Source: an uncultured Gammaproteobacteria bacterium
Lineage (GTDB): Bacteria > Patescibacteriota > Patescibacteriia > Magasanikbacterales > GCA-002688135
NCBI GenBank assembly: GCA_964622665.1
Contig: CAZUUO010000001.1
Span: 6,666 to 70,665 of the forward strand
DNA: 64,000 nt
Reading direction: 5' to 3'
This document shows positions 15,038-61,000 of the stretch, in pieces (position 1 is the first letter of the stretch; each line of letters begins with the position of its first letter). A program made the translations under genes and the position numbers. The notes below the pieces were generated by a model, which was not told the origin of the DNA, ran no database searches, and was given only the letters and a program-made list of their open reading frames with translations.

Positions 15038-15313
15038 TTATTTTCTTTTTAATTTATAAACTTTTAAAATTTCACCTTTTGCTTTTTCTGTTTGTCCTGA
15101 TTTTATTTGATGGATGATGCAGGTTCCCAGATGACCTTCAAGTAAAATATCTTCAACCCCTGACAATCCTTGTTTGACCGCCGATGTTTGCGTGATAACA
15201 TCAATGCAATAGCTATCTTCTTCTATCATTTTTTGCAGACCGCGTATTTGCCCTTCAATAAGCTTCAATCGCCGGATTACTTTTTCTTTGTGATTGGTAT
15301 GATTGTGTTCCAT
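15038..15313 (-). CDS. csoR: CsoR/RcnR-family metal-sensing transcriptional repressor
   Basis: 91 aa all-alpha protein with the conserved 'RL.RIEGQ.RG' region ('RRLKLIEGQIRGLQKMIEED') and a C..H..C-type metal site ('YCIDVITQ... HLGTC'). It is the first gene of the copper operon. Confidence 0.8.
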   Translation of the reverse strand: MEHNHTNHKEKVIRRLKLIEGQIRGLQKMIEEDSYCIDVITQTSAVKQGLSGVEDILLEGHLGTCIIHQIKSGQTEKAKGEILKVYKLKRK

Positions 15314-15326
15314 ATGTTTTTATTAT

Positions 15327-15346
15327 ATACCCCCTAGGGGGTATAT
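15327..15346. promoter_or_regulatory. perfect 20-bp palindrome TATACCCCCTAGGGGGTATA; predicted CsoR operator overlapping the -10 box (TATAAT on the minus strand) of the csoR-copA operon
   Basis: A GC-rich inverted repeat of the TACCC...GGGTA type characteristic of CsoR operators. It lies 14 nt upstream of the csoR start, and the right half contributes the TATAAT. Confidence 0.55.
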
Positions 15347-15476
15347 GCAAGTTCATAAAAAATTCAATAAAATATTGACAAAATCGCTTTTTTCTGATAT
15401 GCTTTCCCCACTTCGTATCTGCGCCATGGTGGCGTTTATCGCGAAGTAAGACTTTCACAAACTCAGAGGAGTTAGC

Positions 15477-16343
15477 ATGAAAGCAATCAACATCATCGTT
15501 CTTTTGATAATTGTATTTGCAGGATGTAGTAAAAAAATTCCACAACACAACCGTGCTCCAGAGCAAGTGGTCGAAATGACCAATGGCATTGATCGTGCCA
15601 TTATCATGCGTGATAAATATATGAGTGTACTTCCCCTCAGTGACCTCCCTCACGGAAATGAGTACACGAAGTCATATTTTGATAAGCTGAAGAAACGCAA
15701 GCAAACAGTCATTGCGTGGTTGCAGCAAAATCCCGTGACCATTATGTTCATCGGGCAGATGCACATTGATTTGACGGGTGATAATACAACAGAGTCAATG
15801 CAGTCTGTTGAAAAGTCGCAACAATGGGTTTACGAACAACTTGAAAAAGTTGCATCAAAAATCCAACTCATTACGTTTGAAGAACCTGGTAACACAGAAG
15901 TGGTCACCCCTTATGTCATGCAAAAACACGTGCTTGATGAGCTTGCATATGTGAAACCATTCATCGGTGATTTTCCTACCCCATCAACCGATGAGGTTTG
16001 GAAAACACTCCAAGAAGATGGAGATGGCGTACTTCAATTCATGCGTACACCCACCAATCCTCCCATCTACTTTGGCGAGGAGTGGCCGTGCTCTCTTGAA
16101 TCAAATCTCCTAATGATAGTAAACCAACTCCCACAGGGAGAACCACAAATCGCCGCCGAATCATTCATCAACGATTTCAACCATTTGCGTTCAGAGATTA
16201 TCGTGATTCGTACCCTTGAATTTCTCATGGAAAGAAATGGAAAACATGCTGCCATTGTGCAAGGCGCATGGCACACCGACGACATGATTCGTATCGCTCC
16301 TGAATACGGTTTTACGTTGGACCTCGCGTCTAACGTGAAGTAA
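15477..16343 (+). CDS. hypothetical lipoprotein
   Basis: Lipobox-like N-terminus ('LLIIVFAGCSK'). A possible sigma-70 promoter (TTGACA, 17 nt, TATGCT) lies at about 15375-15404. Confidence 0.4.
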   Translation: MKAINIIVLLIIVFAGCSKKIPQHNRAPEQVVEMTNGIDRAIIMRDKYMSVLPLSDLPHGNEYTKSYFDKLKKRKQTVIAWLQQNPVTIMFIGQMHIDLTGDNTTESMQSVEKSQQWVYEQLEKVASKIQLITFEEPGNTEVVTPYVMQKHVLDELAYVKPFIGDFPTPSTDEVWKTLQEDGDGVLQFMRTPTNPPIYFGEEWPCSLESNLLMIVNQLPQGEPQIAAESFINDFNHLRSEIIVIRTLEFLMERNGKHAAIVQGAWHTDDMIRIAPEYGFTLDLASNVK

Positions 16344-16404
16344 CCGATAAACGACCCACGATGGGCCGTTTTTTTATTATTTAATTACAGTATCATTATG
16401 CAAC

Positions 16405-16460
16405 AAAAAACCGCCACACGCGTGACGGTTTTTCATTATGTTGCATTTTCTATTTACGAA
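16405..16460. repeat. about 55-nt repeated intergenic element, copy A (A-run, CGCCAC-N4-GTGACG hairpin, T-run, then TTATGYTGCATTTTCTATTT)
   Basis: Near-identical copies lie at 17195-17250 and, hairpin half only, at 18172-18209. All are immediately 3' of minus-strand transcription units (glsB-like, PPase, tRNA-Asn). Confidence 0.45.
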
Positions 16461-16698
16461 TCATTTTTACCACACTTATACATATCACCGCGCCAAATAA
16501 CGCCACCAAGAAACTGTAGATATTGAATCCGGTGACAGGGTACTTCCCAATCATACTCATAATCCAACCACCGATAGCAGCCCCAACAATACCTACCACG
16601 ATGTTGAGTACCATTCCTTGTGATTTATCCGTATTCATCACCAACGACGCAACCCAACCAACAATTCCCCCAAATATAACCCAAAGAAAAAATCCCAT
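16450..16698 (-). CDS. GlsB/YeaQ/YmgE-family transglycosylase-associated small membrane protein
   Basis: 82 aa with the characteristic 'GGIVGWVASLVM' glycine-zipper TM pattern. Confidence 0.7.
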   Translation of the reverse strand: MGFFLWVIFGGIVGWVASLVMNTDKSQGMVLNIVVGIVGAAIGGWIMSMIGKYPVTGFNIYSFLVALFGAVICISVVKMIRK

Positions 16699-16749
16699 AT
16701 TATTACCCGTTATAATATCTAATTATCCACAAAAACTTTTCCAAATTTC

Positions 16750-17058
16750 CTATGATATTTTTTCTTTCATAGTAACCCATCGAGCTTTTAAGGTTTCAAT
16801 GATGTCATCTTTGTAATCTTGCAGATCTTCTTTTCCCTCAAGATATTCATCTACTAACCGGTCAATTGTTTGGTTATAAGATTCACGCGTCACTTCAGCC
16901 ATTTCACCCAATTTTTCTTCCACAATACTGTATATGTGCGCAATATCTCTTTCTGCCGACTTTTGTAACGAGCGTCCTTTTCGTGCTTTCACAAAAAGTA
17001 ATGCAGCACCTACTGCGATAGCCCCCCAGGCTATTGTTTTTCCGAATCCTTTTTTCAT
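16750..17058 (-). CDS. hypothetical membrane-anchored protein (YtxH-like)
   Basis: N-terminal TM ('TIAWGAIAVGAALLFV') then a charged helical domain. The start is probably the ATG at 17058 ('MKKGFGK'), not the track start at 17085. Confidence 0.35.
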   Translation of the reverse strand: MKKGFGKTIAWGAIAVGAALLFVKARKGRSLQKSAERDIAHIYSIVEEKLGEMAEVTRESYNQTIDRLVDEYLEGKEDLQDYKDDIIETLKARWVTMKEKIS

Positions 17059-17194
17059 AGTGGTGCAGGGTTGAGAGACGCACAAAAGTATGTCTTACAC
17101 TATCAATGGTAGTCCTTACTGAGCATTTGTCAAAGATTCTGACGCGTATTTTTTTACTAGTTCCCGTAATGTTTGTATTTGCTGGGTATAAACA

Positions 17195-17250
17195 AAAAAT
17201 CGCCACTTTCGTGACGAGTTTTTATTATGCTGCATTTTCTATTTGCCAGT
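17195..17250. repeat. repeated intergenic element, copy B
   Basis: aacaaaaaatcgccactttcgtgacgagtttttattatgctgcattttctatttgcc matches copy A at more than 85% identity. Confidence 0.45.
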
Positions 17251-17278
17251 ATGTCTGCCTTTACGTGAAATGACGTTT

Positions 17279-17629
17279 TTAATTACGTACGACCCTACCG
17301 GAAAAAAACTGTTCCTGAAAATAAGTCGCAGCAATAATTTGCTCATCGGTTAGCAATGGATCATCAGTAACTACCAATTTGTCATCATCGTCGTCATCAC
17401 GATGTATAACAGCAATACAAAACCCAAAAAATTCAGACATCGGCTCAGTTGGACCAATCACATATGCATCAATAGGCTCACCATCAGGCGCAACCGTATT
17501 TGGAATATAGCCATAATTGATAGGATAGATATATCCATATTTTGGATGTTGTGACCCAAGAGGTCGTTCAATTACCACGTGTACTTTTTGACCAATGTAA
17601 CGATGTGAGTAGTCAGCACTTGATTCCAT
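17279..17629 (-). CDS. short family-I inorganic pyrophosphatase-like protein (116 aa)
   Basis: Matches the PPase core 'YPxNYGxIPxT...DGDPxDxxV' ('YPINYGYIPNTVAPDGEPIDAYVIG') and an Asp-rich segment. It appears to lack about 50 N-terminal residues of canonical PPases. Confidence 0.55.
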   Translation of the reverse strand: MESSADYSHRYIGQKVHVVIERPLGSQHPKYGYIYPINYGYIPNTVAPDGEPIDAYVIGPTEPMSEFFGFCIAVIHRDDDDDDKLVVTDDPLLTDEQIIAATYFQEQFFSGRVVRN

Positions 17630-17701
17630 AGTAGATACAGTATTTCAAAATAAATATCATTACGCAATAAAAAAAGTGAGCCCATGGCTCACACTCCTAT
17701 A

Positions 17702-18100
17702 TTACAAATACTCGTCTATGAATTTCCTGATCGCAATTCGCCCACCGTCTGTCAAATAATATGAAAGAACGTGTTGTATTGGAACCCAATCAAATCCCTG
17801 ACCTTCTCCCAGTACAAAATCGCTCTTTTCCTGATTATTTTTTGTTAAAAAAATATGATAGTCTGGTTTTTCAGGTCGTTTGATTGCAAATAAGAACTCA
17901 ACATGTGAAGCAGACACCCTTACACCCAATTCTTCGTAAAGCTCACGAATCAGTGCTTCTATTGGTTCCTCACCTTCCTCATTATGACCACCAAACAATC
18001 CCCATTTCCCATTGTACGGTGCGTGTTCATCACGATGCTGCATCAGTACTGATTTTCTTTCCTCACTATAGATAATCGCGGAAACAATAAAATTGTTCAT
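17702..18100 (-). CDS. NUDIX hydrolase
   Basis: Nudix box 'GGHNEEGEEPIEALIRELYEELGV' (Gx5Ex7REUxEExGU). Confidence 0.75.
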   Translation of the reverse strand: MNNFIVSAIIYSEERKSVLMQHRDEHAPYNGKWGLFGGHNEEGEEPIEALIRELYEELGVRVSASHVEFLFAIKRPEKPDYHIFLTKNNQEKSDFVLGEGQGFDWVPIQHVLSYYLTDGGRIAIRKFIDEYL

Positions 18101-18171
18101 GCATTCCTCCTAATTCATAGGAAAGCATATTGGTAAACTATCACACCCCTCACAAATACTCAATAATCAGC

Positions 18172-18209
18172 GACAAAAACAAAAAATCGCCACTTTCGTG
18201 ACGACTTTT
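18172..18209. repeat. repeated intergenic element, copy C (hairpin/terminator half only), abutting the 3' end of tRNA-Asn
   Basis: aaaaaatcgccactttcgtgacgacttttt is identical to the copy B hairpin. The tRNA follows directly. Confidence 0.4.
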
Positions 18210-18284
18210 TGGCTCTGAGGGTGGGGATCGAACCCACGACCAATACGTTAACAGCGTACTGCTCTGCCGCTGAGCTACCTCAGA
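18210..18284 (-). tRNA. tRNA-Asn (anticodon GUU)
   Basis: The reverse complement folds as a 75-nt cloverleaf: acceptor TCTGAGG/CCTCAGA, D-arm GCTC-AGCGGCA-GAGC, anticodon stem-loop GTACG-CTGTTAA-CGTAT, T-arm GTGGG-TTCGATC-CCCAC, discriminator G and an encoded CCA. Confidence 0.85.
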
Positions 18285-18392
18285 ATATCTCCCTTTTGGG
18301 GATGTCCCTATAATACAAAGTAGCCGTTTCTCTGTCAACTTACATTTCCACAACATTATTCCCCTTTAAAAATGCAAATTCCAATTGTTTTC

Positions 18393-19235
18393 CTACTTCT
18401 CTTGCTCTTCTTGTTGTTCCATCACCCCGGTATTGTCTGTAATGACCTCTAGAATCCTTTCTTCGTCTGGATGTTCACCTTCCAATAAACTTGGATCAAA
18501 AAATATGGCATGTCCATAGATTACCTTAAACAACTCACCTCTTTCCTTACTCGCCACATCTTTTTCATCAAAGAGATTTCGAATCAATTGTTTATTTGTT
18601 TTATATGCTAATGAATTTTGATATTCACGTTGTCTCTCTGTGATTTTTTCATTTGCCTCATGGTTTCCCAGATACATCTCATACACAGACCTATCCCTGG
18701 TAATGGAACTGCTTTTCTCAACAATTGCTCCTTCAAAACCTCGAAGATCCTCCTCCATTTTTTTAATTTTTTCGCGGTTTAGTAATCCCGGAATTCCCCA
18801 AAAACCCTTCAATACCTTTATTTGTTTTTTTAGCTCGATAACTTTTTCATTCCAATGTTTCACATCTGCCTTTTCTCTTTCATGTCTACGAATTAAATCA
18901 GTATTGACATATTCCCATTGCCCCTTAGGTAACTCAAGCTCCTCTTGAGCGCGTACTTCATTAATTTGCGCCTGTAGTCTTTCAATTTTCTCGTCCAAAC
19001 GTTGTAATTTTTTTATATCATCAAACGCCATTTTTTTCTTTAATTCCCTAATTTTTTCGTATACTTCAAAAGAACTCCCTCCGAGTCTTTCCTTATGTTT
19101 CGCGATCCAATCATGGACACTTTCAGGATCCCACAAATATATTATTTCTTCCACATCAGATTCAGTAAACCCTTCTTTTTGTGGAAGCATTACATTATCT
19201 TTTATTACACCAACCTTCTCTCCTCTTTTGTCCAT
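18393..19235 (-). CDS. hypothetical coiled-coil protein (280 aa); third gene of the Pif1-associated module
   Basis: Highly charged K/E-rich heptad-like sequence in the central region with no catalytic motif seen. It lies 42 nt downstream of the Pif1-like gene. Confidence 0.4.
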   Translation of the reverse strand: MDKRGEKVGVIKDNVMLPQKEGFTESDVEEIIYLWDPESVHDWIAKHKERLGGSSFEVYEKIRELKKKMAFDDIKKLQRLDEKIERLQAQINEVRAQEELELPKGQWEYVNTDLIRRHEREKADVKHWNEKVIELKKQIKVLKGFWGIPGLLNREKIKKMEEDLRGFEGAIVEKSSSITRDRSVYEMYLGNHEANEKITERQREYQNSLAYKTNKQLIRNLFDEKDVASKERGELFKVIYGHAIFFDPSLLEGEHPDEERILEVITDNTGVMEQQEEQEK

Positions 19236-19277: not shown

Positions 19278-20552
19278 CTACACTGACTCGAGGAAAACGC
19301 GCACACGGTCATCCACCATTACGTCACGGGGGCGCAATGGGCGTGCCAAGGTAATGCCATGTAATGAAGTGGCGCGTGACAGAGCAACATAGGTTTGGCC
19401 GTTTGCAAAGGCACCACTACCTAAATCGATGTGTAATTTATCAAAGGTTTTACCTTGTGATTTATGAATCGTTACAGCGTAGGCCAACTTCAAGGGAAGT
19501 TGTACAAATGTTCCCCTTTGTTTTTGATCAAGAGCATTTTTTTCTTCATCAAAAACGGTTTCATACATCGTCCATGTATGTGGCATGACTTCGATTGTTT
19601 TCCCATCGTCGGTTTGCACCATCACTCGTCTATCAATAATATCTTTCACAGACCCTAACGTTCCGTTCACGTACAATCCATTTTGCGTGTCATTTGCGAC
19701 AAACATTACCCGCGCCCCAACTTTTAACACGAGGTCAGTTTCGGTTGGTGCATTTTTATCATCAAACTTTCCCGTTGTTTTGGAAGGAAATCGAACAGCC
19801 TTAGCACCTAATTCATTGAGACGTTGTTCATTAATTGTTTTAGCGGTGTCATTTCTCCCCGTTAAAATTAAGGTGTCACGATCGGTCATGGAAAACACTC
19901 GTTCATGCAACATTTCAAAATGATATTGTTCAATACTTTTTTCTCGAATCGCGTGGAGTAATTCCAAAAAATCTGCATCTTTTTGGCGAAATACATGTTC
20001 CAATTCAATGCGATGTAACAAATTAAATTCGCGCAATCGTTTAATTACTTGAGCATCAAAAAAATATTCCGATGCGTATAATTTTTTAAACGCTTCCATC
20101 TCATCAAATTTAATAATCGGTGGGAGTTGGTATAAATCTCCAAACATAAGCACTTGCACGCCCCCAAATGGTCGTTCATCTTTTCGTACCGCACGCAAAA
20201 ATACATCGATGCAATCGAGTAAATCAGCCCGCACCATGGATATTTCATCAATGATGAGGGTGTGCAATTCTTTAAATAGTTTTTTCTTTTGAGAAAAATT
20301 TGCCTCTTTTCGGGCACGAGGCACACTGACACTGGGCGCAAAACCAAAACATGAGTGAATTGTTTCACCCCCCACATGCAACGCCGCAACACCCGTTGGT
20401 GCTACGGTAATGCAATTTTTAGTTGTATTGAGTCGGTACTGTGTTAATAGCGTGCTTTTCCCGGTTCCTGCTTTCCCGTGAACAAATACACATCCACTAT
20501 TTTCCTGTAGAAAATCCAGTGCTTCCTGCCATGTCGCGTTTTTTCCATCCAT
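19278..20552 (-). CDS. Pif1/RecD-like SF1B DNA helicase
   Basis: Walker A 'GKAGTGKST', motif Ia 'VAPTGVAA', Walker B 'LIIDEISMV' and a C-terminal Pif1-type region 'AVTIHKSQGKTFD'. The start overlaps the upstream ORF by 56 nt. Confidence 0.7.
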   Translation of the reverse strand: MDGKNATWQEALDFLQENSGCVFVHGKAGTGKSTLLTQYRLNTTKNCITVAPTGVAALHVGGETIHSCFGFAPSVSVPRARKEANFSQKKKLFKELHTLIIDEISMVRADLLDCIDVFLRAVRKDERPFGGVQVLMFGDLYQLPPIIKFDEMEAFKKLYASEYFFDAQVIKRLREFNLLHRIELEHVFRQKDADFLELLHAIREKSIEQYHFEMLHERVFSMTDRDTLILTGRNDTAKTINEQRLNELGAKAVRFPSKTTGKFDDKNAPTETDLVLKVGARVMFVANDTQNGLYVNGTLGSVKDIIDRRVMVQTDDGKTIEVMPHTWTMYETVFDEEKNALDQKQRGTFVQLPLKLAYAVTIHKSQGKTFDKLHIDLGSGAFANGQTYVALSRATSLHGITLARPLRPRDVMVDDRVRVFLESV

Positions 20553-21951
20553 AGTCTACATCGCGTAAATATCTTCTAAAGAGATAATCCCCTACTTCCA
20601 CTCTATTGTCAAAGTGTGGAGAATTAGGTAATTGATCCCACATTTTTTCAATCTCACGATACAATACATTTACATCTCGTTCTTCACCATTAAAAATAAA
20701 TGGATAGATTACTGATTTTGATTCTACCGGTGTGAGGTACAAATTATTTAGTAAACATTGGCGAAGTAATATTTTGTATTCTTTATCCGTAAGGGTATAC
20801 GGATCATGGGTCTCATCAAATATTCCCCCTTTTTTCCTATAGTACTCTCGTGTACCTTGTACTATCTCATTTCGCAAAATTGCTTCTTTCTCTAAAATTT
20901 CTTTCTCTATGACTCTATCTATATTTTGAACACTATCCCTACTTACTTCATCAAGTATTTCTTTAGCCAGATCCCCATTTACCTCATTGATTTTACCGCC
21001 AGGGACTTCAATAAAATAAAATACCTGCATTCTTTTGTTACCCGCCTTTATTGTTTTCTTCATTTTCTCCCGAAATTCATTAAAGACCTTTAACCCATTC
21101 ATCATCTCAAATACTCCATTGAGATTTTTTTTCTCATCAAGAGAAACTTCTCCGCGCAATATACGGAGTGAGTCCTTGGTTTTATACTGGAGAATTTCAC
21201 CATGGCGTCCATATTCATCAATTCCCTGCAATGCGTCTTCTGTTGGTTTTGAAGTGCGCGGTTTTAACTGTAATTTCTCGGCAACTTGATGCGCACCAAT
21301 ATGTGACAACACACCAGACTTTAAACCGCTATATTCTTTTTTATACCCCGAACTTTCAGCAATTTCTTCCAAAATACTCCAAAATACTTTTAAAAACTCT
21401 TTGTCATCTCTATTTGCCTGAACAAAATTAATAAGAGTATTTGTGTACTCTACAATTCCCACAATGTCACTTTGTACTTCCGCCAATTTAGTTCTTGTTC
21501 TATTTTCATTTAAGTAAATTTGTGATTCTAGAGTTGATTTTAAACCGAATAATAATTCAATCCCTTGTATTTGATCAGGAAATTTTGCAATAAACTGTTC
21601 TTTGAGTTTTTTATTTTCCTCATCACTTAAACCAAACCTGACATGCTCTAAATATCTTTCTTGTAAATCAGTTTCTGGTGACTCCTCTAATCCATTAAGA
21701 ATTTTATTTCTACTCAATATATCATCAAAATTTGCATCAAAACTTTTCTTCCACCAATCACGAAGAATATGCTCAACTTCGGATCGTTCATAGGGTGTTA
21801 ACCAATTCCCCTCTACATAATCGCGTATATATTCACGATCTTCTTCTGAAAAGTCACGAATGGAAGCTAACACTACTTTTTTCAATAGTGTTTCTGGTGA
21901 TCGTAATTCTTTTTTTTCTTGTTTTGGATGGACAAAATCTCTAAATTCCAT
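20497..21951 (-). CDS. hypothetical protein (484 aa); first gene of the Pif1-associated module
   Basis: Long, charged, soluble protein with no motif I recognise. Its stop lies inside the Pif1 start region, consistent with translational coupling. Confidence 0.4.
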   Translation of the reverse strand: MEFRDFVHPKQEKKELRSPETLLKKVVLASIRDFSEEDREYIRDYVEGNWLTPYERSEVEHILRDWWKKSFDANFDDILSRNKILNGLEESPETDLQERYLEHVRFGLSDEENKKLKEQFIAKFPDQIQGIELLFGLKSTLESQIYLNENRTRTKLAEVQSDIVGIVEYTNTLINFVQANRDDKEFLKVFWSILEEIAESSGYKKEYSGLKSGVLSHIGAHQVAEKLQLKPRTSKPTEDALQGIDEYGRHGEILQYKTKDSLRILRGEVSLDEKKNLNGVFEMMNGLKVFNEFREKMKKTIKAGNKRMQVFYFIEVPGGKINEVNGDLAKEILDEVSRDSVQNIDRVIEKEILEKEAILRNEIVQGTREYYRKKGGIFDETHDPYTLTDKEYKILLRQCLLNNLYLTPVESKSVIYPFIFNGEERDVNVLYREIEKMWDQLPNSPHFDNRVEVGDYLFRRYLRDVDYGWKKRDMAGSTGFSTGK

Positions 21952-44000: not shown

Positions 44001-44034
44001 CGTTTCTCGGCGGTTTACCGCTAAAGGAGGGATC

Positions 44035-44184
44035 CATGTCGACCGACTTCAAGAAGGATGCCAACTGCCCACACTGTCTGGGACGCACATCGCACGCACT
44101 GAGTGGTCGCCCACGCTGCCGCAAGCGGATGGCGAAGGGCGGCAAGCAGAAGAACAAGGAGGTGAAGAAGCAGAAGAAGTAATC
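44035..44184 (+). CDS. GC-rich 49-aa highly basic Cys/His-containing small protein (MSTDFKKDANCPHCLGRTSHALSGRPRCRKRMAKGGKQKNKEVKKQKK)
   Basis: Strong Shine-Dalgarno AAAGGAGGG 5 nt upstream of the ATG and an intrinsic terminator immediately downstream. It sits antisense between two minus-strand genes, and all lysines use AAG. Confidence 0.45.
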
Positions 44185-47313: not shown

Positions 47314-47406
47314 TCCAATAACCCCGCCATGTGCGTGGTTTTTTATTTATTGACTTTACCCGCTAAAGCGAATAGGATTTTTATTGTCCCGTACTAAGGA
47401 GGGTGT

Positions 47407-47844
47407 ATGTTGACAATTTTGCACTCTGTCTCGGAATTAATTGAATCTTATCTGCGTCATTTGCAGCAACTTTTTTTTCAAAATAAAAATGTTGATTTTT
47501 CAAATGAACACTGCAGCAAAATTGCCGCAGAATATACTCCCCACTTTGAAGGAATAAGTGCGGCTGAATTAGCACGTATCGGGAGAGAACACTGTAGTTT
47601 TGTTACCAAAAAACTGCGCGAGGTTCTTGAGAATCGTCACCTTATGAATCGTAGTACTGCTATGGTTCAACTCTATTCACGGACCGATCCTCCAGAAACA
47701 ATGCAAGAAGTATTTGCAAACCTTTTTGCTGACATTGTGATCTTGCTAGGAAGTATCAATCATTGTGTTGTGGTAAAGAAAAAAGAGCGCACTGAACTTA
47801 CCGTCACGGCAAGCAGAGAATTTGTAAACGCGCTGCATTTGTAA
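47407..47844 (+). CDS. hypothetical 145-aa protein (tandem paralog B of the preceding gene)
   Basis: Same length as paralog A with alignable blocks ('TVQLF' vs 'MVQLY', 'DVFLCCAEVARVVF' vs 'EVFANLFADIVILL'). Strong Shine-Dalgarno AAGGAGGG precedes it. Confidence 0.35.
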   Translation: MLTILHSVSELIESYLRHLQQLFFQNKNVDFSNEHCSKIAAEYTPHFEGISAAELARIGREHCSFVTKKLREVLENRHLMNRSTAMVQLYSRTDPPETMQEVFANLFADIVILLGSINHCVVVKKKERTELTVTASREFVNALHL

Positions 47845-47871: not shown

Positions 47872-49932
47872 TTATTTTTTCTTTGTGGTGCGGACGCGTT
47901 GTTTTGCTTCCTTCCCTTGTTTACTGAGTTTCTTTTGCAACTCACGAATTTCATCACGTAAAATTGCAGCAACTTCAAATTGTAATTGTGATGACGCTTC
48001 TTTCATTTGTTTTTCTTTTATTTTAATACGCTCCTCAACAGTTTTATCTTGTTCTCCAACTTCTTCAAACGCAATTACATCCTTAATATTTCCCAATTTT
48101 CCCTGTGGATCCTCTGATAAACCAAACTCTTCACTGTAATCAACAATATTTTTAATAATAGTTTTTGGCGTAATTCCATGTTTCTCGTTGTACGCCAATT
48201 GTTTTTCGCGACGACGTTCTGTTTCATCCATCGCCCGTTTCATAGAACCCGTAATGGTGTCCGCATAGAGCACCACTTGCCCGTTTACATTACGAGCCGC
48301 ACGACCAATGGTTTGTATGAGTGATGTATCGGAGCGCAAAAAGCCTTCTTTGTCAGCATCAATAATGGCAACCAATGAAACTTCTGGTAAATCGAGACCC
48401 TCACGCAACAAGTTAACACCCACCAACACATCATAGGTTCCCCGTCGAAATTCGGTTAAAATTTTCAACCGATCAACAGTATCAACATCACTGTGTACAT
48501 ACACTGCTTTAATTTTGCGTTTACGTTTTTTACCTTCGGTATTAATATACTCCGTTAAATCTTCTGCCATTTTTTTGGTTAACGTGGTAACGAGTGCACG
48601 CTCTTCACGATCAACGACAATGTCGATGCGTGCAAATAAATCTTCAATTTGTCCTTTGCTACCATGCAAAATTAATTCAGGATCTACAAGACCCGTTGGA
48701 CGAACAATCATTTCAGCAATATGTGCCGATTGTGCGCGTTCATAATTCCCTGGCGTTGCTGAGACAAAAATTGTTTGCTTAATCAAATGTTCAAATTCAG
48801 CAAATCGTAAGGGGCGATTATCGATAGCACTGGGCAATCGAAATCCGTATTCAATTAATGTTTTTTTACGTGCTTTATCCCCTTCACTCATTCCGCCAAT
48901 TTGAGGAACCGAAACATGTGACTCATCAATAATGGTAATAAAGTCATCAGGGAAAAATGAAATTAACGTGTTGGGTGCTGCACCACTTTCCCGTCCATCA
49001 AAGTGTCGTGAATAATTTTCAATACCATGACACATCCCCAACTGTGCAATCATGGAAATATCGTTCTTCGTGCGTCGTTCTAATCGTTCAGCTTCGAGCA
49101 ACAATCCGTTCTTATTAAAGAAAGCAAGACGTTCCTTCAACTCTTTTTTAATTGATGCGATTGCAGTTTCACGAACTTCTGGCGGTGCCACGTAATGTCG
49201 TGCTGGGAAAATATAGAGCGTTTCTCGTTCTTCTATTGTTTTGCGTGTGATGGGATCTATAACTTCCAGTTCATGTACACGACCCCCTTCAACACTAAAC
49301 CGATAAATATGTGAGGCACTTTCTGCACCATGCACTTCAAACACATCGCCTCGTACGCGAAATTGTGCACGCAAGACATCGGCATTCGTCCGTTCAAATT
49401 GCGCTTCCACTAAAAATTTCATCACGTTGTCACGAGTCATTTCCATTCCTTCCACCAATTTCAACGCGCCACGTTCATATTCTTCGCTCGATCCCAAATT
49501 ATAAATACATGAAACTGACGCCACAATAATCGTATCGCGTCGGGTCAAAATTGCTTGGGTGGCACTGTGGCGTAATCGATCAATTTCATCATTAATCATC
49601 GCTTCTTTTTCAATGTAGGTGTCACTCCCCGGCATGTATGCCTCTGGTTGATAGTAGTCGTAATAGGAAACAAAATATTCCACGGCGTTATGTGGAAATA
49701 GCGTTCGCAACTCACTACATAATTGTGCGGCGAGAGTTTTATTATGCGCAATAACCAAAGTTGGTCGTTGAGTTTTTTCAATTACTTGCGCCATGACATA
49801 GGTTTTACCGGTTCCTGTTGCACCGAGCAATGTTTGAAATTGCATGCCCTTATTTACATTTTCAACCAATTCTTTGATCGCTTTCCCCTGATCTCCCGCA
49901 GGTTTATATTTTGATACGAGTTGGAATTTCAT
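47872..49932 (-). CDS. uvrB: excinuclease ABC subunit B
   Basis: Walker A 'GATGTGKTY', the beta-hairpin/'YYDYYQPEAY' signature, helicase motifs ('IIDESHV', 'VSATPG', 'TIGRAARN') and a C-terminal UVR domain ('AAILRDEIRELQKK'). Confidence 0.95.
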   Translation of the reverse strand: MKFQLVSKYKPAGDQGKAIKELVENVNKGMQFQTLLGATGTGKTYVMAQVIEKTQRPTLVIAHNKTLAAQLCSELRTLFPHNAVEYFVSYYDYYQPEAYMPGSDTYIEKEAMINDEIDRLRHSATQAILTRRDTIIVASVSCIYNLGSSEEYERGALKLVEGMEMTRDNVMKFLVEAQFERTNADVLRAQFRVRGDVFEVHGAESASHIYRFSVEGGRVHELEVIDPITRKTIEERETLYIFPARHYVAPPEVRETAIASIKKELKERLAFFNKNGLLLEAERLERRTKNDISMIAQLGMCHGIENYSRHFDGRESGAAPNTLISFFPDDFITIIDESHVSVPQIGGMSEGDKARKKTLIEYGFRLPSAIDNRPLRFAEFEHLIKQTIFVSATPGNYERAQSAHIAEMIVRPTGLVDPELILHGSKGQIEDLFARIDIVVDREERALVTTLTKKMAEDLTEYINTEGKKRKRKIKAVYVHSDVDTVDRLKILTEFRRGTYDVLVGVNLLREGLDLPEVSLVAIIDADKEGFLRSDTSLIQTIGRAARNVNGQVVLYADTITGSMKRAMDETERRREKQLAYNEKHGITPKTIIKNIVDYSEEFGLSEDPQGKLGNIKDVIAFEEVGEQDKTVEERIKIKEKQMKEASSQLQFEVAAILRDEIRELQKKLSKQGKEAKQRVRTTKKK

Positions 49933-52867: not shown

Positions 52868-53890
52868 TTATGATTCATTTCTAAAATATTCTAAACAGAC
52901 GTATAACGCCGTTACTGCTGGAATCGCGATCAAACCTCCTACGATACCTCCTAATTTTACACCCATTACGATTGAAATGATAGAGGCAATTGGATTGATA
53001 CCCACAGCCTTCTGCATTACCTTTGGTACTAAAATGTGGTTTTCGATTTGTTGAATTACCACAAACAATCCTCCCACCATGATTGCCGGTATCACTGATT
53101 CAGGATGTTGTGCTAATGCAAGAAAAATAGCTGGTAATGCTGCAATCGTTGGGCCAATATACGGTACCGCCTCCAATAATGCCGCAAGTACGGCTAACAA
53201 CGCTGCATACGGAACTCCCAAAATTGTCAGACCAACATACACTAAAATACCAATAGACACCGAAAGAATCATTTGGCCACGTAACCATTTACCTAATTTA
53301 TCCTTTATAAGATGTACCAACTCAAGAATTTTTGTACGATATTTTGGTGGCGCAACAAATTCAAGAAAATTTTTCATCATACTGTCTTCAATCACCAAAT
53401 AAAAAGTGAGCACAAAAACAAAGATAATACTAAAGATACTGCGCAATGCTTCTCGCACAGTACTAAATAACTCTCCACTTGCTTGGCTTAATGTTTGTGT
53501 CAATGAAACACCTTCTCCCGATAACACCGGAAACGATCCTCCGCCAATTCGTATACCTTGCAAACGATGAGTTACTGACTCTAATAAATGTCCAAAACTT
53601 CCCGCGAATGCAGAACTTTGATCAATTAAAATAGGAACGAGTTGCGAAAGAATAAGACCTAACAATCCAAATAAAACACCAAAAATAAACAAGACCCCAA
53701 ACGCACGAGGAATTTTGTATTTTTCACACCACGTAGCAAAGGGATCAATGAGTGATGCTAAAATCACCGCTATAAAAAACGAAAACACTAGGTCACGTAA
53801 AAAATAGAGCACCCATACACCCGCAACAAATCCAACCACTTTAAAGAGTGTTTTTGTAGAAATAGTGATAACTTGTTCCTCATTCTTCAT
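52868..53890 (-). CDS. AI-2E family transporter (PerM/YhhT-like permease)
   Basis: 340 aa with about 8 TM helices and the typical layout ('FIAVILASLIDPF...', C-terminal 'LGGIVGGLIAIP'). Confidence 0.7.
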   Translation of the reverse strand: MKNEEQVITISTKTLFKVVGFVAGVWVLYFLRDLVFSFFIAVILASLIDPFATWCEKYKIPRAFGVLFIFGVLFGLLGLILSQLVPILIDQSSAFAGSFGHLLESVTHRLQGIRIGGGSFPVLSGEGVSLTQTLSQASGELFSTVREALRSIFSIIFVFVLTFYLVIEDSMMKNFLEFVAPPKYRTKILELVHLIKDKLGKWLRGQMILSVSIGILVYVGLTILGVPYAALLAVLAALLEAVPYIGPTIAALPAIFLALAQHPESVIPAIMVGGLFVVIQQIENHILVPKVMQKAVGINPIASIISIVMGVKLGGIVGGLIAIPAVTALYVCLEYFRNES

Positions 53891-53949: not shown

Positions 53950-54402
53950 ATGGTAACCATTATCGCCAGCAATAAACAAGCGATGTTTGATTACACCCTT
54001 CTCAAACGTTTTGAGGCAGGGATTGTTTTACATGGTCATGAAGTGAAATCAGTAAAAACGGGGCACGCCCAACTGAAAGGCGCATATGTCACTATTATGC
54101 ACGGTGAAGTGTTTCTGTTTAATGGTCACATTCCTGCGTATGCCCGTTCACGAGTGAGTGCAACGTATGACCCATACCGTAGCCGCAAGTTACTGCTTAA
54201 CAAAAAAGAAGTAATGGAACTTATTGGCAACAAAGCTATGCAAGGTATGTCAGTTGTTCCCCTCTCCATTTATCTGTCACACAATAAAATAAAAGTGGAA
54301 ATTGCACTGGCTCGCGGTAAAAAACAATTTGAAAAACGTGACTCCATTAAAAAACGAGAAACAGATCGAGAGATACGACGTGCGCTCAAAACATCGTTCT
54401 AA
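53950..54402 (+). CDS. smpB: SsrA-binding protein SmpB
   Basis: 'IASNKQAMFDYTLLKRFEAGIVLHGHEVKS' and 'NGHIPAY...KLLLNKKE' signatures with a basic C-terminal tail. Confidence 0.9.
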   Translation: MVTIIASNKQAMFDYTLLKRFEAGIVLHGHEVKSVKTGHAQLKGAYVTIMHGEVFLFNGHIPAYARSRVSATYDPYRSRKLLLNKKEVMELIGNKAMQGMSVVPLSIYLSHNKIKVEIALARGKKQFEKRDSIKKRETDREIRRALKTSF

Positions 54403-54442: not shown

Positions 54443-54839
54443 AAACCGTTGTGGGGATGAAGGGAATCGATTGGGTCGAATTCGTGCCATGCATGTCGCA
54501 GGTGCTCATACTTGCGTTATCACTATGAGCAAAAACAAATGTCAACGTTTCAAACGTACGCGCAGCACTTGCAAAAGTGTTCGCTATGACACCTGTAGCA
54601 GCTTAATTGCAGCTACCATCGTCTCTTTCTCGCCAAGGAGCAAGAGTAACGGTGTAATACAATCTTGGATTCTTACAAAGAACTCACGACACTTTGTAAT
54701 GAATACATGCGTCGTGTAGAATGTTTCGTATTTCGTAACTTGTTTTAAGCGAAACATCGACAACCTACAAGTTACTACACACGTAGAGTGGTAACGACAC
54801 TACGTCTCAAGACGCGGGTTCAACTCCCGCCATCTCCAA
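54443..54839 (+). ncRNA. ssrA: tmRNA (ssrA); predicted tag reading frame ...AAL AKV FAM TPV AA* ending at TAA about 54625-54627
   Basis: It lies immediately downstream of smpB. The 5' GGGGATG pairs with the 3' CATCTCC, including a G3:U70 Ala-identity pair. A tRNA-like T-arm 'GCGGGTTCAACTCCCGC' is present. The internal ORF ends in 'PVAA' then TAA. CCA is not encoded. Confidence 0.75.
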
Positions 54840-55103
54840 CAAAAAAAGTTTGCGCATTTGTGCAAGCTTTTTTTGTTTATGGGAGTTGAACAAGGAAGGC
54901 ACAGGAAACCTTGGTTTCTTGTCTGCAGAAGTATTGAAACCGATGGTTTCAAAGCACAGCGCGAAGCTGCGAGCAGTAAAACTCCGCCATCTCCAATAAA
55001 AAATCCTACTTTATCGGTAGTATTTTTTATTTTACATTGACAAAATCAACTTTTTTTCCTATTATGAAGTGTCATTGGACCCCAAACCCCAAACCAAAAG
55101 GAG

Positions 55104-56675
55104 GTGGCGGCAATGACAACTGTACCCCCCAAAATTCTTGGGAATTATAAAGTAATTAGTGAGCTCGGTGAAGGCGCGATGGCGAAAGTATATCTCGCCT
55201 CTCACACCAGAATCCCTGAACTTACGGTTGCTATAAAGGTCGTTGACAACAAACATCCTGAATCAGAAACATTACTGGGACGTTTTGAACGAGAGGCTCG
55301 ACTTCTTGCATCAGTGAAACATCACCACTTGGTGCGAATCTACGATTTTGGAAAAACCATCTCTGGTTCTTTCTATATTGCCATGGATTTCATCAAGGGA
55401 TATGACCTGCGAACACTTATTGATTCCTATATCACAAGTGGAACGCGGTTTGATCCCCTTTTGATAATCAAGATTGCTAAAGAAATTTGTGAGGCACTCG
55501 AGGTAATACATGATGCAGGTATTGTTCATCGCGATCTTAAGCCTGAAAATATTATGCTTGAAGAAACTCGACGCGATCCTCATTTTGTGCGCGTGTTGGA
55601 TTTTGGTATCGCAAAAATGCTTGATACTGAAGACAATCCCAAACGCTTTCAAACGGCAGTTGGCATGATTTGTGGGACACCACAATATTTGTCACCCGAA
55701 CAAGCCAAAGGTGAAACACTTGATGGTCGTAGTGATTTGTATGCACTCGGTTGTATTTTGTATGAAATGCTTTCATTGCAACTTCCGTTTACTGCTGACA
55801 ATCCTGTTGCATATTTAACCAAGCATATCACCGAACCACCGTTCCCCCTTGACTTTCGAGCACCTGATAGTAATCAAAAGCTGCGACTATTAGCACATCT
55901 CCTTCTTTCTAAGGATCCTGATGATCGTCCTTACGATGCTTTCGAAGTATATGATGCATTGTTGGATATCGAAGATGGGATTGCAAAACAACGTAGCCCT
56001 CGTCGCAATTCCAGAATCATGCGCATGTTCACTCCACCACCAACTCCCAATACTACGTCACTCGCTGGACTTGTTTCAGAAGTTTCGATGCCAGTTGGTG
56101 TTGCAGTTGATGATGACCACGAGTCAGCAGCCACTAACACCGAAGAGATTTTTTTTCCTGTATCACTGTGGCGTAGTTTTTTCACTAATCACTACGCAAA
56201 GTTGAGTGCTGCACTTGCGGTAATTATTCTGGCAACAGCAGCTCTTTTTTCTTCAAACAAGGAGCAACTCATTGATTTTGGAAACTATTTTTCTCCAATT
56301 GCTGAGTCTCAGGCTAAGGTGGTTCTGCGTCCCGTTACTCCCTATTCATTTGAAGAACAAGGTCTTACACGACCACGTCGTGCTCCTGCTCTTGCTCCAA
56401 GTGTTACTGCACCTTCCTACATTGGTGCAACTATGCGAGGTGAACAAGACACCGAAGACGCACTACCGCGTCGAACTATTGCAACAACCTTTATAGCACC
56501 AGTCGTTGCTGTTAGTAAACCGACGCGTTCACCCGCACAAAAGTTGGCAACAGCCAAAGTAGCGACAAAAAACGCAGCAACACGCACTCATGGTTGCGCA
56601 CAACTAAAAGGCCTGTTCTCTACTACGGTAGGCAGTGAAGCTCGATCGTTTTATAATGTGTACTGTTCTCAATAA
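55104..56675 (+). CDS. Hanks-type serine/threonine protein kinase with C-terminal TM and extracytoplasmic low-complexity domain
   Basis: ATP lysine 'VAIKVV', catalytic loop 'HRDLKPENIML', 'DFGIAK', 'GTPQYLSPE', and a TM at about aa 365-385. No PASTA repeats are evident. A candidate promoter (TTGACA, 17 nt, TATTAT) lies at about 55040-55068. Confidence 0.85.
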   Translation: MAAMTTVPPKILGNYKVISELGEGAMAKVYLASHTRIPELTVAIKVVDNKHPESETLLGRFEREARLLASVKHHHLVRIYDFGKTISGSFYIAMDFIKGYDLRTLIDSYITSGTRFDPLLIIKIAKEICEALEVIHDAGIVHRDLKPENIMLEETRRDPHFVRVLDFGIAKMLDTEDNPKRFQTAVGMICGTPQYLSPEQAKGETLDGRSDLYALGCILYEMLSLQLPFTADNPVAYLTKHITEPPFPLDFRAPDSNQKLRLLAHLLLSKDPDDRPYDAFEVYDALLDIEDGIAKQRSPRRNSRIMRMFTPPPTPNTTSLAGLVSEVSMPVGVAVDDDHESAATNTEEIFFPVSLWRSFFTNHYAKLSAALAVIILATAALFSSNKEQLIDFGNYFSPIAESQAKVVLRPVTPYSFEEQGLTRPRRAPALAPSVTAPSYIGATMRGEQDTEDALPRRTIATTFIAPVVAVSKPTRSPAQKLATAKVATKNAATRTHGCAQLKGLFSTTVGSEARSFYNVYCSQ

Positions 56676-58547: not shown

Positions 58548-59165
58548 ATGCGTATTTCACGACATCGTCGCAGAAAACCTACCGTCTCGGATAAAGTGCG
58601 TGCACGCATTAACGAGTACATCAAAGCAGATGAGGTTCGCGTTGTTGATGCTGAAGGAGAATATGTGGGTATCATGACCCTCCCTGAAGCACTAACAATC
58701 GCTCGAGAACAAGAGTTGGACCTCGTTGAAATCAATCCAGCGGCTGTTCCTCCGGTATGTAAAATCATGTTGTACGGACAATATAAGTACCAACAGGAAA
58801 AACAAGAACGAACCCGCCGAGCCAAACAAAAGGAAGTCCTTTTGAAAGGTATTCGCCTTTCAGCCCGCATCGGTGACCACGACTTGGAAATCCGCAAAAA
58901 TCAAGCGGTTTCCTTCCTTCAAAAGGGTAATAACGTTAAAATCGAAATTATCTTACGGGGCCGTGAAAAAGGACACACCGATATTGCTCGCAATGTGGTC
59001 CGTGACTTTATTGCAGCCATTCAAGCGGAATGTGGGGCTAAAGTGGAACAACCGGTCATGCAACAAGGACCCCGAATTACCTCTATAATTACTCCACAGG
59101 CTGGGGCAAAACCCGCTCAAAGTGGCGAAAATAAAGAGGAAGATGAACTTGACGAATTAGAATAA
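58548..59165 (+). CDS. infC: translation initiation factor IF-3 with acidic C-terminal tail
   Basis: N-domain 'INEYIKADEVRVVDAEGEYVGIMTLPEALTIAREQELDLVEI' and C-domain 'KEVLLKGIRLSARIGDHDLEIRKNQ'. It ends in 'ENKEEDELDELE'. The start codon is uncertain because IF-3 often uses non-ATG starts. Confidence 0.85.
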   Translation: MRISRHRRRKPTVSDKVRARINEYIKADEVRVVDAEGEYVGIMTLPEALTIAREQELDLVEINPAAVPPVCKIMLYGQYKYQQEKQERTRRAKQKEVLLKGIRLSARIGDHDLEIRKNQAVSFLQKGNNVKIEIILRGREKGHTDIARNVVRDFIAAIQAECGAKVEQPVMQQGPRITSIITPQAGAKPAQSGENKEEDELDELE

Positions 59166-59186: not shown

Positions 59187-59384
59187 ATGCCAAAACATGG
59201 AAAGACAAGAAAATCGGTCGCAAAACGTTTTGCTATTACTCGTAATGGTAAAGTTAGCCATCGAACATCAGGCCAAGATCACTTTAATGCGCGCGAACGC
59301 AGCAAAGTGACTCGTGCTAAACGCCAAGATCGCGCGTTAACCTCAACGCTCACAAAGACGATCACATTGGCTATTAATAAATAA
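59187..59384 (+). CDS. rpmI: 50S ribosomal protein L35
   Basis: 'MPKHGKTRKSVAKRFAITRNGKV' is the canonical L35 N-terminus. The track ORF starts earlier at a GTG. Confidence 0.85.
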   Translation: MPKHGKTRKSVAKRFAITRNGKVSHRTSGQDHFNARERSKVTRAKRQDRALTSTLTKTITLAINK

Positions 59385-59399
59385 TGAGGTTGAAATAAT

Positions 59400-59744
59400 A
59401 TGCCACGCGTAAAACGAGGTACCACCCATACCAAGGCTCGTCGTAGTCTTTTGAAAAAAACTAAGGGTTACATGTGGGGACGCAAGAGCAAAGTTCGTCT
59501 TGCCCACACCGCTGTAATGAAAGCAGGCAGTTACGCCTACCGTGATCGTCGCAATAAAAAGCGTTCAATTCGATCATTGTGGCAAATCAAAATTAACGCC
59601 GCTTCTCGACAATTGGACACTACCTACTCAAAACTTATCGGTGCTCTTAAAAAAGCTAACATTACTATCGATCGCAAGATCTTAGCTCATTTAGCTGAAA
59701 AGCACCCAGAAGTATTTGCAAAAGTAGTCTCTGCTGCAAAATAA
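59400..59744 (+). CDS. rplT: 50S ribosomal protein L20
   Basis: 'MPRVKRGTTHTKARRSLLKKTKGYMWGRKS' is the canonical L20 N-terminus, completing the infC-rpmI-rplT operon. Confidence 0.9.
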   Translation: MPRVKRGTTHTKARRSLLKKTKGYMWGRKSKVRLAHTAVMKAGSYAYRDRRNKKRSIRSLWQIKINAASRQLDTTYSKLIGALKKANITIDRKILAHLAEKHPEVFAKVVSAAK

Positions 59745-59785
59745 AAACAGGCGCCGCAAGGTGCTTGTTTTTTTGTTCTCTATCA

Positions 59786-59814
59786 TTGACACTGAAACCC
59801 TCTTTTGTTATAGT
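59786..59814 (+). promoter_or_regulatory. near-consensus sigma-70 promoter (TTGACA, 17 nt, TATAGT) driving a 240-nt leader upstream of the RimK-like gene
   Basis: Exact TTGACA at 59786-59791, a 17-nt spacer and TATAGT at 59809-59814. Confidence 0.45.
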
Positions 59815-59945
59815 AACCACGTCTTAGAAAATCTAAGGCAGACATGAATCAATAAATAAACACACACGTTTTCTCAATCTAAACGAAAAAGTTTACCCTA
59901 AAATAAACCATTGTATCGTCGTTGTTGTGTATTTGTGTTGATCTC

Positions 59946-60061
59946 ATGTTTGCGGAAGTTCACAAGGCTCTTGTCAGGGCTCAGTGTCTCCCCCTTCATG
60001 CGTACCCTCCTTCGCGTGAAGTGGTGGTTTCATTGGGCCCTGAGAAGAGCTTTTACTTTTT
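59946..60061 (+). other. GC-rich nested-helix RNA element, coincident with a 39-codon uORF, immediately upstream of and overlapping the start (ATGA) of the RimK-like gene
   Basis: Outer helix GCTCTTGTCAGGGC (59967-59980) pairs with GCCCTGAGAAGAGC (60037-60050). Inner helix CTTCATGCG pairs with CGCGTGAAG. TTTTACTTTTT follows. The uORF is MFAEVHKALVRAQCLPLHAYPPSREVVVSLGPEKSFYFL, with its stop in ATGA. Confidence 0.4.
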
Positions 60062-61000
60062 ATGAAAATATATACCCTTGCTTACATTAAAGCAGAGAAA
60101 AAATCAGACAAACCATCTTCAATCGACATGATTGAAGCGGCTGCTATTGCTCGTGGTCATGAATTTGAAGTTATTCTTGCGCGCAATTGCCAAGCATTTT
60201 TTCTTGAGCAACCTTCATTTCAAGTGAATGGTATCGAGCGCTCTGATATTTCTTTACTACTCCATCGTCCCAACTTTAAAAGTGCTGATGCTGAGTTGCA
60301 TCAATGGATTGTAAATCAATTTGATTTAATGGGTGTCTCTATTATCAATCCATCACGCGGGGTACAAATTGCAAAAAATAAACTTCGCCAACTCCAATTG
60401 TTTACCAAACATGATGTACCCATGCCTCGTTCATGTGTGATTCAAAATGGTGAGGGTGTTGAACATGCAACGAAAAATCTCCGTGGTGATTCATTTATCA
60501 TCAAAATCCTCGGCGGCTCACAAGGTATCGGTGTCATGATTGCTGAATCAAAGCGATCTCTTCGTTCAGTAGTTGATTTGTTGACTAACGACGAAAATGC
60601 CTCCCCTATTATTATTCAAGAATACATCAAAGAAGGTTCAGGTAAAGATTTGCGCTTATTTGTTATTGGTAATGAAGTTGTCGCGGCCATGGAACGTACT
60701 GCAGCAAATCCTGAAGAATTCCGCTCAAACTTTAGTCTTGGTGGATCAGTAGCAGCTATTACCCCAACACAAGAAGAAATTGATTTAGCACTTCGTGCAA
60801 GTAAACTTGCAAAATTAGACATCGCCGGCGTTGATATTATTCGTACCAACGAAGGTCCCAAACTCTTAGAAATCAATTCTTCACCTGGTCTTGAAGGTAT
60901 TACTACTGCAACTAGTATTGATATCGCTGGAAAAATCGTTGAATACTACGTTGCTGTTGCTGAAGGTCGCGCAAGTAGCTATGGCAAAAAAGATGAATAA
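60062..61000 (+). CDS. RimK-family ATP-grasp alpha-L-glutamate ligase
   Basis: ATP-grasp layout with 'IIKILGGSQGIGV', 'DLRLFVIGNEVVAAMER' and 'DIAGVDIIRTNEGPKLLEINSSPGLEGI', typical of RimK-like ligases. 312 aa. Confidence 0.75.
   Translation: MKIYTLAYIKAEKKSDKPSSIDMIEAAAIARGHEFEVILARNCQAFFLEQPSFQVNGIERSDISLLLHRPNFKSADAELHQWIVNQFDLMGVSIINPSRGVQIAKNKLRQLQLFTKHDVPMPRSCVIQNGEGVEHATKNLRGDSFIIKILGGSQGIGVMIAESKRSLRSVVDLLTNDENASPIIIQEYIKEGSGKDLRLFVIGNEVVAAMERTAANPEEFRSNFSLGGSVAAITPTQEEIDLALRASKLAKLDIAGVDIIRTNEGPKLLEINSSPGLEGITTATSIDIAGKIVEYYVAVAEGRASSYGKKDE

Follow-up and report, generated by a model that had tools for sequence, protein, structure and literature searches.

In Bacillus, the infC-rpmI-rplT operon carries an L20-dependent attenuator (RF00558), a GC-rich stem followed by a U-tract and bearing conserved sequence that is suggestive of recognition, by a protein of translation, through mimicry of rRNA. 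These features, and the operon itself, are shared by the element described here, termed hairpin II, which lies between rplT and rimK on the + strand of a 64,000-nucleotide stretch of DNA (hereafter the window; positions 6,666 to 70,665 of contig CAZUUO010000001.1, GenBank assembly GCA_964622665.1). The assembly is deposited as an uncultured Gammaproteobacteria bacterium and is placed by GTDB in the Magasanikbacterales of the Patescibacteriota. Unlike the Bacillus attenuator, hairpin II is positioned 3' of rplT rather than upstream of infC, has no antiterminator, has a stem of about 40 bp, and would gate rimK rather than ribosomal-protein genes.

Other described systems share parts of this design. 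In hairpins 13 and 14 of Staphylococcus aureus RNAIII, and in RsaE/RoxS, an unpaired C-rich hairpin loop resembling the anti-Shine-Dalgarno (anti-SD) sequence is complementary to Shine-Dalgarno (SD) sequences, and hairpin II, which would itself be the terminator, has a loop of the same kind. However, it is unrelated to these RNAs in sequence and family, has a single loop with an invariant helix in addition, and is tied to its position on the rimK side. The E. coli rpsO-pnp locus has the same order as the window and its nearest relatives, namely a ribosomal-protein gene, a terminator, a promoter, a long hairpin and the gene for an enzyme. The pnp hairpin, which is cleaved by RNase III, lacks such a conserved loop. 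In the Bacteroidia, the anti-SD is sequestered through binding of the 16S tail by bS21, bS18 and bS6, with rpsU being autoregulated through a strong SD. The tail lies in the bS6/bS18 groove, and its last nucleotides are in contact with the extended C-terminus of bS6 (PMC7797042). An SD-poor genome and the central place of CCUCCUU are common to both cases. Here, however, CCUCCUU is found in the hairpin loop of an mRNA or small RNA and not in rRNA, and no gene for S6, S18 or S21 (bS6, bS18, bS21) was found in the window by tblastn; the connection is a lead only.

Structure and conservation of hairpin II

Hairpin II is an undescribed, clade-restricted, non-coding structured RNA element of a known general kind. 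Folding of the region, which the original prediction had proposed as a check, gives -57.7 kcal/mol for the 103-nucleotide hairpin II segment, compared to a mean of -26.3 kcal/mol for shuffled sequences (z = -9.6, with none of 200 shuffles as good). In a scan of 6392 segments of 100 nucleotides covering both strands of the window (mean -17.2, standard deviation 5.6), hairpin II ranks first in stability, the runner-up being the tmRNA at -43.9. The minus strand of hairpin II folds much more weakly, at -38.9 kcal/mol. The nested helices of a GC-rich segment, the T-run that follows, and a 39-codon upstream open reading frame (uORF) coupled to rimK were all recovered where the original prediction had placed them, and the locus is laid out as follows.

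58548-59165, + strand: infC, encoding IF3 with an acidic C-terminal extension
59187-59384, + strand: rpmI
59400-59744, + strand: rplT
59743-59772, + strand: ordinary intrinsic terminator of rplT
59786-59791 and 59809-59814, + strand: sigma-70-type promoter, TTGACA, 17 nucleotides, TATAGT
59823-59837, + strand: small 5' stem-loop
59838-59953, + strand: hairpin I, an AU-rich rod of ~115 nucleotides
59946-60065, + strand: uORF of 39 codons, ending in an ATGA overlap with the start of rimK
59964-60053, + strand: hairpin II, a conserved GC-rich rod of ~90 nucleotides
59964-59972 and 60045-60053, + strand: helix P1 of hairpin II
59967-59980 and 60037-60050, + strand: outer helix as originally described, GCTCTTGTCAGGGC and GCCCTGAGAAGAGC
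59974-59986 and 60031-60043, + strand: helix P2, with core AGGGCUCA/UUGGGCCCU
59994-60002 and 60013-60021, + strand: inner helix as originally described, CTTCATGCG and CGCGTGAAG
59997-60002 and 60013-60018, + strand: apical helix P3
60003-60012, + strand: apical loop of 10 nucleotides, TACCCTCCTT (= UACCCUCCUU), with core CCCUCCUU
60051-60061, + strand: T-run (U-tract) TTTTACTTTTT, directly 3' of hairpin II and running into the rimK ATG
60062-61000, + strand: rimK, encoding a RimK-family ATP-grasp alpha-L-glutamate ligase of 312 amino acids

Syntenic contigs were recovered through homologues of RimK and L20, and the closest relatives of RimK, L20 and IF3 are found in Magasanikbacteria, Uhrbacteria and metagenome-assembled genomes. 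Five lineages carry hairpin II: the window clade, comprising the window and the loci L031, L054 and L055 (~95% DNA identity to the window), and the loci L058, L061, L039 and L032, with L20 identities of 81-83%, 76%, ~74% and ~65%, respectively. Between lineages, L20 identities range from 63 to 81%.

An alignment of six sequences from these lineages yields a consensus of 33 base pairs, 10 of which show compensatory double changes. Overall, 91.9% of the alignment cells are paired, a value lowered to 27-56% by shifting the pairing register, and the observed covariation was reached by none of 500 column shuffles. P1 covaries, with 5 of its 9 pairs being compensatory. Sequence and length both vary in the middle helix and in the internal loops, and P3 shows wobble changes only, plus a change of the loop-closing pair from G-C to A-U in L061. 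By contrast with these covarying helices, eight consecutive pairs of P2 (AGGGCUCA/UUGGGCCCU), a U·G pair included, are unchanged in all lineages. The eight-nucleotide loop core CCCUCCUU is likewise identical in the five lineages, the loop taking the form U(A/U)CCCUCCUU. The core resembles the anti-SD at the 3' tail of 16S rRNA (ACCUCCUU in the rRNA and ACCCUCCUU in the loop). A covariance model made from the alignment scores the hairpin at 84-99 bits on the + strand and at 29-46 bits on the - strand, and these scores, together with the invariant U·G pair, identify the + strand as that of the structured RNA. The model finds one copy of hairpin II in the window.

The original prediction knew of no riboswitch class for RimK-like genes, and hairpin II matches no family in Rfam 15. 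Only the tmRNA and one tRNA pass the gathering threshold over the whole window, and at E <= 10 the region 59700-60200 returns only spurious matches of 14-22 bits, all far under the gathering scores. Identity as SRP (signal recognition particle), 6S, RNase P or tRNA-like RNA finds no support in Rfam, and their motifs are missing from the loop; with cmscan, hairpin II, an element 3' of rplT, gave no match to the L20 leader RF00558. As to a repeat or mobile element, hairpin II is single-copy in the window and shows no similarity to phage or plasmid records. A scan of JGI metagenomes with GGGCTCAN{10,30}GTACCCTCCTTCG and a 16-mer scan of IMG/VR returned chance matches in high-GC coding DNA that lacked the 3' arm, and a literature search found no RNA motif near rimK. 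To our knowledge, very few regulatory RNAs have been described in the Patescibacteria, or candidate phyla radiation (CPR). Hairpin II represents a covariation-backed, unusually stable RNA located between core translation genes and an enzyme of the ribosome-modifying type.

The same segment had alternatively been proposed to encode a 39-amino-acid leader peptide, or a micro-protein substrate, coupled to rimK through the ATGA overlap. The uORF does exist in the window clade, and its stop overlaps the rimK ATG there, but its frame shifts between strains of 95% DNA identity. L031 and L054 carry a +2 indel ahead of hairpin II and a +1 indel behind it (MFAEVHKALVRAQCLPLHAYPPSREVVVSLGPEKSFYFL to MFAEVPQRLLSGLSVSPFMRTLLRVKWWFHWALRRAFYFL), which change ~30 of the 39 residues and leave the RNA helices intact. 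In L058, L032, L039 and L061, hairpin II is crossed by open reading frames (ORFs) in other frames, of 3-47 codons (some of 21-35 codons) and with other ends, or stops fall inside the hairpin, and the conserved blocks are separated by indels whose lengths are not divisible by three. A leader peptide would be expected to keep its frame, length or key codons among relatives, whereas here the frame, length and end point differ, and the orthologous loci retain the helices, which covary, and not the uORF. The ATGA overlap follows of itself from the Met-Lys start common to every RimK here. Moreover, hairpin I encloses the AUG of the uORF, which lacks an SD, and the peptide has no match in Pfam or NCBIfam. 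A coding role is therefore extremely improbable; the 39-codon ORF is judged to be a non-functional chance open frame across a GC-rich hairpin, and the coupled micro-protein is removed as a false lead. On the minus strand, the reverse complement of the loop and P3 (GAAGGAGGGTACGCATG) reads as a perfect SD followed by an ATG. The small ORF that it would serve (33 amino acids in the window, 5 in L032 and absent in L039) was rejected, because it varies in length between lineages and the minus strand gives a much poorer fold and score.

Arrangement of the locus among relatives

Hairpin II is always found just 3' of infC-rpmI-rplT (5 of 5 lineages), with rimK next in four of the five, wherever the downstream sequence is known. 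The arrangements, in the order of transcription on the + strand, are as follows.

Window clade: rplT terminator, promoter, hairpin I, hairpin II, U-tract UUUUACUUUUU, rimK
L058: rplT terminator, promoter TTGACA-17-TACACT, ~10 nucleotides, hairpin II, weak U-tract UUUAUGUAU, 19 nucleotides, rimK
L032: rplT stop, 25 nucleotides, hairpin II, U-tract UUUUUGCUUUUU, 22 nucleotides, rimK, with no promoter between rplT and rimK
L039: rplT stop, hairpin II, U-tract AUUUUUUAUAU, promoter-like TTGACC-18-TATACT 13 nucleotides before the rimK ATG
L061: rplT stop, 16 nucleotides, hairpin II, moderate U-tract UUUUAUCUU, a different 125-nucleotide hairpin, contig end 240 nucleotides later

A separate rplT terminator is present in the window clade and L058. 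The loci L032, L039 and L061 lack one and have hairpin II in its place, 16-25 nucleotides after the rplT stop codon. Since the window clade and L058 are mutually closest relatives, the extra terminator and the promoter were probably acquired in a single derived event.

The promoter of the window had been proposed as a consensus-like sigma-70 promoter after the rplT terminator, and it is present at that place, with 11 of 12 positions matching and an extended -10 TG. Transcription is predicted to start at ~59821, giving a transcript of ~240 nucleotides (-93.1 kcal/mol, z = -9.9) that would fold into three parts, the 5' stem-loop, hairpin I (-33.6 kcal/mol, z = -4.0) and hairpin II. The GC content is 0.31-0.32 over positions 59800-59949, versus 0.56 over 59950-60049. 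The proposal that this 240-nucleotide leader is a functional unit holds for hairpin II, which is conserved, but not for the remainder, as hairpin I is confined to the window clade (absent from L058, L032, L039 and L061) and only the window clade and L058 have a promoter upstream of hairpin II. In L061, the different rod-like hairpin that stands right after hairpin II (positions 2391-2510 of that contig; -55 kcal/mol, z = -7.0) has no sequence relationship to the window's hairpin I.

Outside these lineages, the covariance model did not find hairpin II in 30 other rimK loci, nor is it present upstream of rimK in L033, L037 and L038, and the idea of a general companion of rimK was rejected on these grounds. 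It was also not found in the infC-rpmI-rplT loci of three outgroups (L059, L062 and L063), which have ordinary short rplT terminators with hairpins of 8-13 bp. A JGI contig (3300001199, locus L057) is identical to the window clade through rplT, the terminator and the -35 box, and then switches abruptly, at ~387-450, to minus-strand genes that are unrelated; this reflects either a chimeric assembly or a strain without hairpin I, hairpin II and rimK.

Proposed attenuation of rimK and competing explanations

Hairpin II has the layout of an intrinsic terminator, with a GC-rich stem-loop followed by a U-tract on the + strand. A U-tract with an invariant UUU follows it in every lineage; the window clade, L032 and L039 have strong tracts, L061 has a moderate one and that of L058 is weak. 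A strong promoter precedes hairpin II in both the window clade and L058, with none between hairpin II and rimK; L032 has no promoter in the entire interval from rplT. Thus, of the four lineages in which rimK is seen downstream, three lack a separate rimK promoter beyond the hairpin, implying a dependence on read-through and, in turn, an attenuator. Hairpin II is also kept in the window clade and L058 despite the separate rplT terminator, which argues that it is not the terminator of rplT only. The reading that is tentatively favoured, at somewhat less than an even chance, is that hairpin II represents a factor-recognised terminator or attenuator hairpin that gates rimK.

According to this proposal, the + strand transcript would fold into a rod of ~40 bp followed by the U-tract, resulting in intrinsic termination of most transcripts, and rimK would be expressed by polymerase that reads through from the dedicated promoter (window clade, L058) or on the rplT transcript (L032). 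No conserved + strand complement that could provide an antiterminator or a cis partner for the loop was found in any locus. The lack of a competing antiterminator, together with an invariant P2 and loop amid covarying helices, is suggestive of docking by a trans-acting factor. Such a factor would dock on the U·G-containing P2 helix and on the loop, and so set the gate. The likeliest candidate would be a translation protein that contacts the 16S anti-SD tail, for instance IF3 or a platform protein of the S6/S18 type, in which case binding would amount to the usual feedback by rRNA mimicry. Since bS6 is the canonical substrate of RimK and in the Bacteroidia also touches the 16S tail, feedback of this type is conceivable, as a lead only. 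An invariant loop that copies the anti-SD motif, in a genome that seldom uses SDs, may be a handle on the control of initiation.

Several observations weigh against attenuation of rimK. In L039, a promoter matching at 10 of 12 positions stands between hairpin II and rimK, such that rimK may not need read-through there; ~0.9 such matches would be expected by chance in that interval. The weak U-tract of L058 may terminate poorly, and L061 has no rimK within 240 nucleotides downstream. In addition, a stem of ~40 bp far exceeds the typical length of a terminator, and the comparison comprises five lineages only, one of which supplies four near-identical copies.

Translational control of rimK through its own SD had also been suggested, in that the purine-rich 3' arm of the outer helix could be a sequestered SD. 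The arm is 9 nucleotides from the rimK AUG in the window clade only, and 24-60 nucleotides away elsewhere; the start codon itself is confirmed in four lineages by a conserved N-terminus, MK(I/L)xxL. Among 47 long ORFs in the window, only five are preceded by an SD core. SD sequestration was rejected, the spacing being unconserved and the genome SD-poor. A -10 box ending 5-9 nucleotides before the ATG is found for 13 of the 47 ORFs, compared to a background of 10%. This, taken with the scarcity of SDs, points to frequent leaderless mRNAs and suggests that such messages may be widespread in the genome; a literature search found nothing on leaderless translation in Patescibacteria. Extended -10 boxes resembling TGGTATACT lie close to starts, for instance those of the minus-strand ORFs at 52868-53890, 47872-49932, 20497-21951 and 2568-3116.

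The original prediction had left the choice between a riboswitch or attenuator platform and a small RNA. The terminator-like structured RNA in that proposal is retained, and the riboswitch is not, because hairpin II is a simple stem-loop for which no alternative fold is available. A ligand-sensing leader controlling rimK would account for the structured RNA and its terminator-like end 5' of a gene for an ATP-grasp ligase of metabolic type, but the single unbranched rod has no multi-helix junction, pseudoknot or alternative antiterminator pairing, its internal loops vary in sequence and length, and it has no Rfam match even at the relaxed threshold given above. Furthermore, only ~10 nucleotides of leader precede hairpin II in L058, and it is rplT coding sequence that precedes it in L032, L039 and L061. 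With no alternative fold and so little upstream, a riboswitch is very unlikely. A stronger competitor, though still a doubtful one, is a trans-acting small RNA, in which hairpin II and its U-tail would be a stable product with an anti-SD-like loop that represses the few SD-led mRNAs by pairing with SD regions reading AAGGAGGG. The RNA would derive from its own promoter (~240 nucleotides in the window clade, ~100 nucleotides in L058) or from the 3' end of the rplT mRNA (L032, L039 and L061). This is the only model that fits all arrangements, including those of L039, with its promoter after the hairpin, and L061, with no adjacent rimK. The strong promoter and terminator of the window clade, the only one to combine the two, and the low frequency of SDs are in keeping with it, as is the seed-like invariant loop. 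The sequence AAGGAGGG/CCCTCCTT occurs five times in the window, with ~1 expected, and two of these five, at 44024 (48-amino-acid ORF) and 47396 (145-amino-acid ORF), are SDs that have 8-10 nucleotides of complementarity to the loop. However, any SD complements an anti-SD-like loop, such that the candidate targets are unspecific, the invariant sequence of P2 is not needed for seed pairing and is left unexplained, the terminator of L058 is weak, and no RNA chaperone is known from Patescibacteria.

The hairpin could also be a passive element, such as an unusually long terminator, an insulator or an RNase III processing site that separates the rplT and rimK transcripts and stabilises the 3' end, with a loop of no regulatory meaning. 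Replacement of the rplT terminator by hairpin II in L032, L039 and L061 is consistent with this, as is the U-tract that follows, and its 22 nearly continuous base pairs would presumably suit RNase III. Nevertheless, such an element has no need of an invariant eight-nucleotide loop core and eight-bp helix while its other helices covary, hairpin II is retained where rplT has a separate terminator, and the outgroups manage with hairpins of 8-13 bp. A purely passive element is accordingly considered unlikely, and less probable than either the small RNA or the favoured attenuator of rimK.

Two of the rare strong SDs, in the segments 44024-44182 and 47396-47844 (+ strand), read AAGGAGGG rather than the canonical AAGGAGGU, a hint of an anti-SD in this organism that may itself read CCCUCCUU. 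The ORFs that they lead, at 44036 and 47407, encode 48 amino acids, with a CxxC motif and a basic tail, and 145 amino acids; neither belongs to a Pfam family.

The acidic IF3 tail and other features of the window

The rimK product scores 193.2 bits against TIGR00768 (cut-off 143.4) and matches PF08443 at 4.4e-48, with 7qys, 5zct and 4iwx as the best PDB matches (~1e-49 to 1e-51). Against NF007764, the equivalog model for the S6--L-glutamate ligase, it scores 184.9 bits, under the cut-off of 331, and S6 is thus not established as its substrate. The E. coli enzyme lengthens S6 at its ...EE terminus.

The unusual acidic tail of IF3 noted in the original prediction was confirmed and is a feature of the clade as a whole. 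In each of the five lineages with hairpin II, the IF3 C-terminus (59100-59165 in the window) has an extension of 20-25 amino acids with an acidic end (...EEDELDELE, ...SELDEE, ...HDIDEE, ...ETLDE and ...QLDESAQ), whereas IF3 of the three outgroups ends where the IF3_C domain normally does. Among IF3 clusters from a database search, the 15 nearest (P0241-P0255) are 198-210 amino acids long and have acidic tails, with one exception (P0253, 184 amino acids), and the rest are ~182-184 amino acids in length. The acidic tail co-occurs with rimK directly after infC-rpmI-rplT.

Given a RimK that scores under the S6-ligase threshold and is placed in the infC operon, IF3 is a plausible alternative substrate, its acidic tail being the putative site of modification; a literature search found nothing on glutamylation of IF3. 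In the most extended form of the proposal, the hairpin would mimic the 16S anti-SD tail, be bound by a platform or initiation protein, and gate a RimK that acts on the IF3 tail (...DEE) and not on S6. This combination is improbable as a whole, but if true would represent a self-contained circuit of infC tail, hairpin and rimK that tunes translation initiation in an SD-poor clade with largely leaderless translation. The occurrence of hairpin II and rimK beside rplT, along with an acidic IF3 tail, provides a testable idea of RimK substrates other than S6.

Elsewhere in the window, near-identical terminator-like repeats (AAACAAAAAATCGCCAC...GTGACG..TTTTT) are found at 16401-16455, 17190-17244 and 18177-18210. 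A relaxed Rfam search of 15300-18400 returned only the tRNA, and the repeats flank several small minus-strand genes next to tRNA-Asn. The tmRNA (54453-54841, + strand, 111 bits) lies directly after smpB (53950-54402) and has an unusually long predicted tag, AKTNVNVSNVRAALAKVFAMTPVAA. It is followed by a Ser/Thr kinase gene (55113-56675) that has one of the few strong SDs, AAAAGGAGGUGG.

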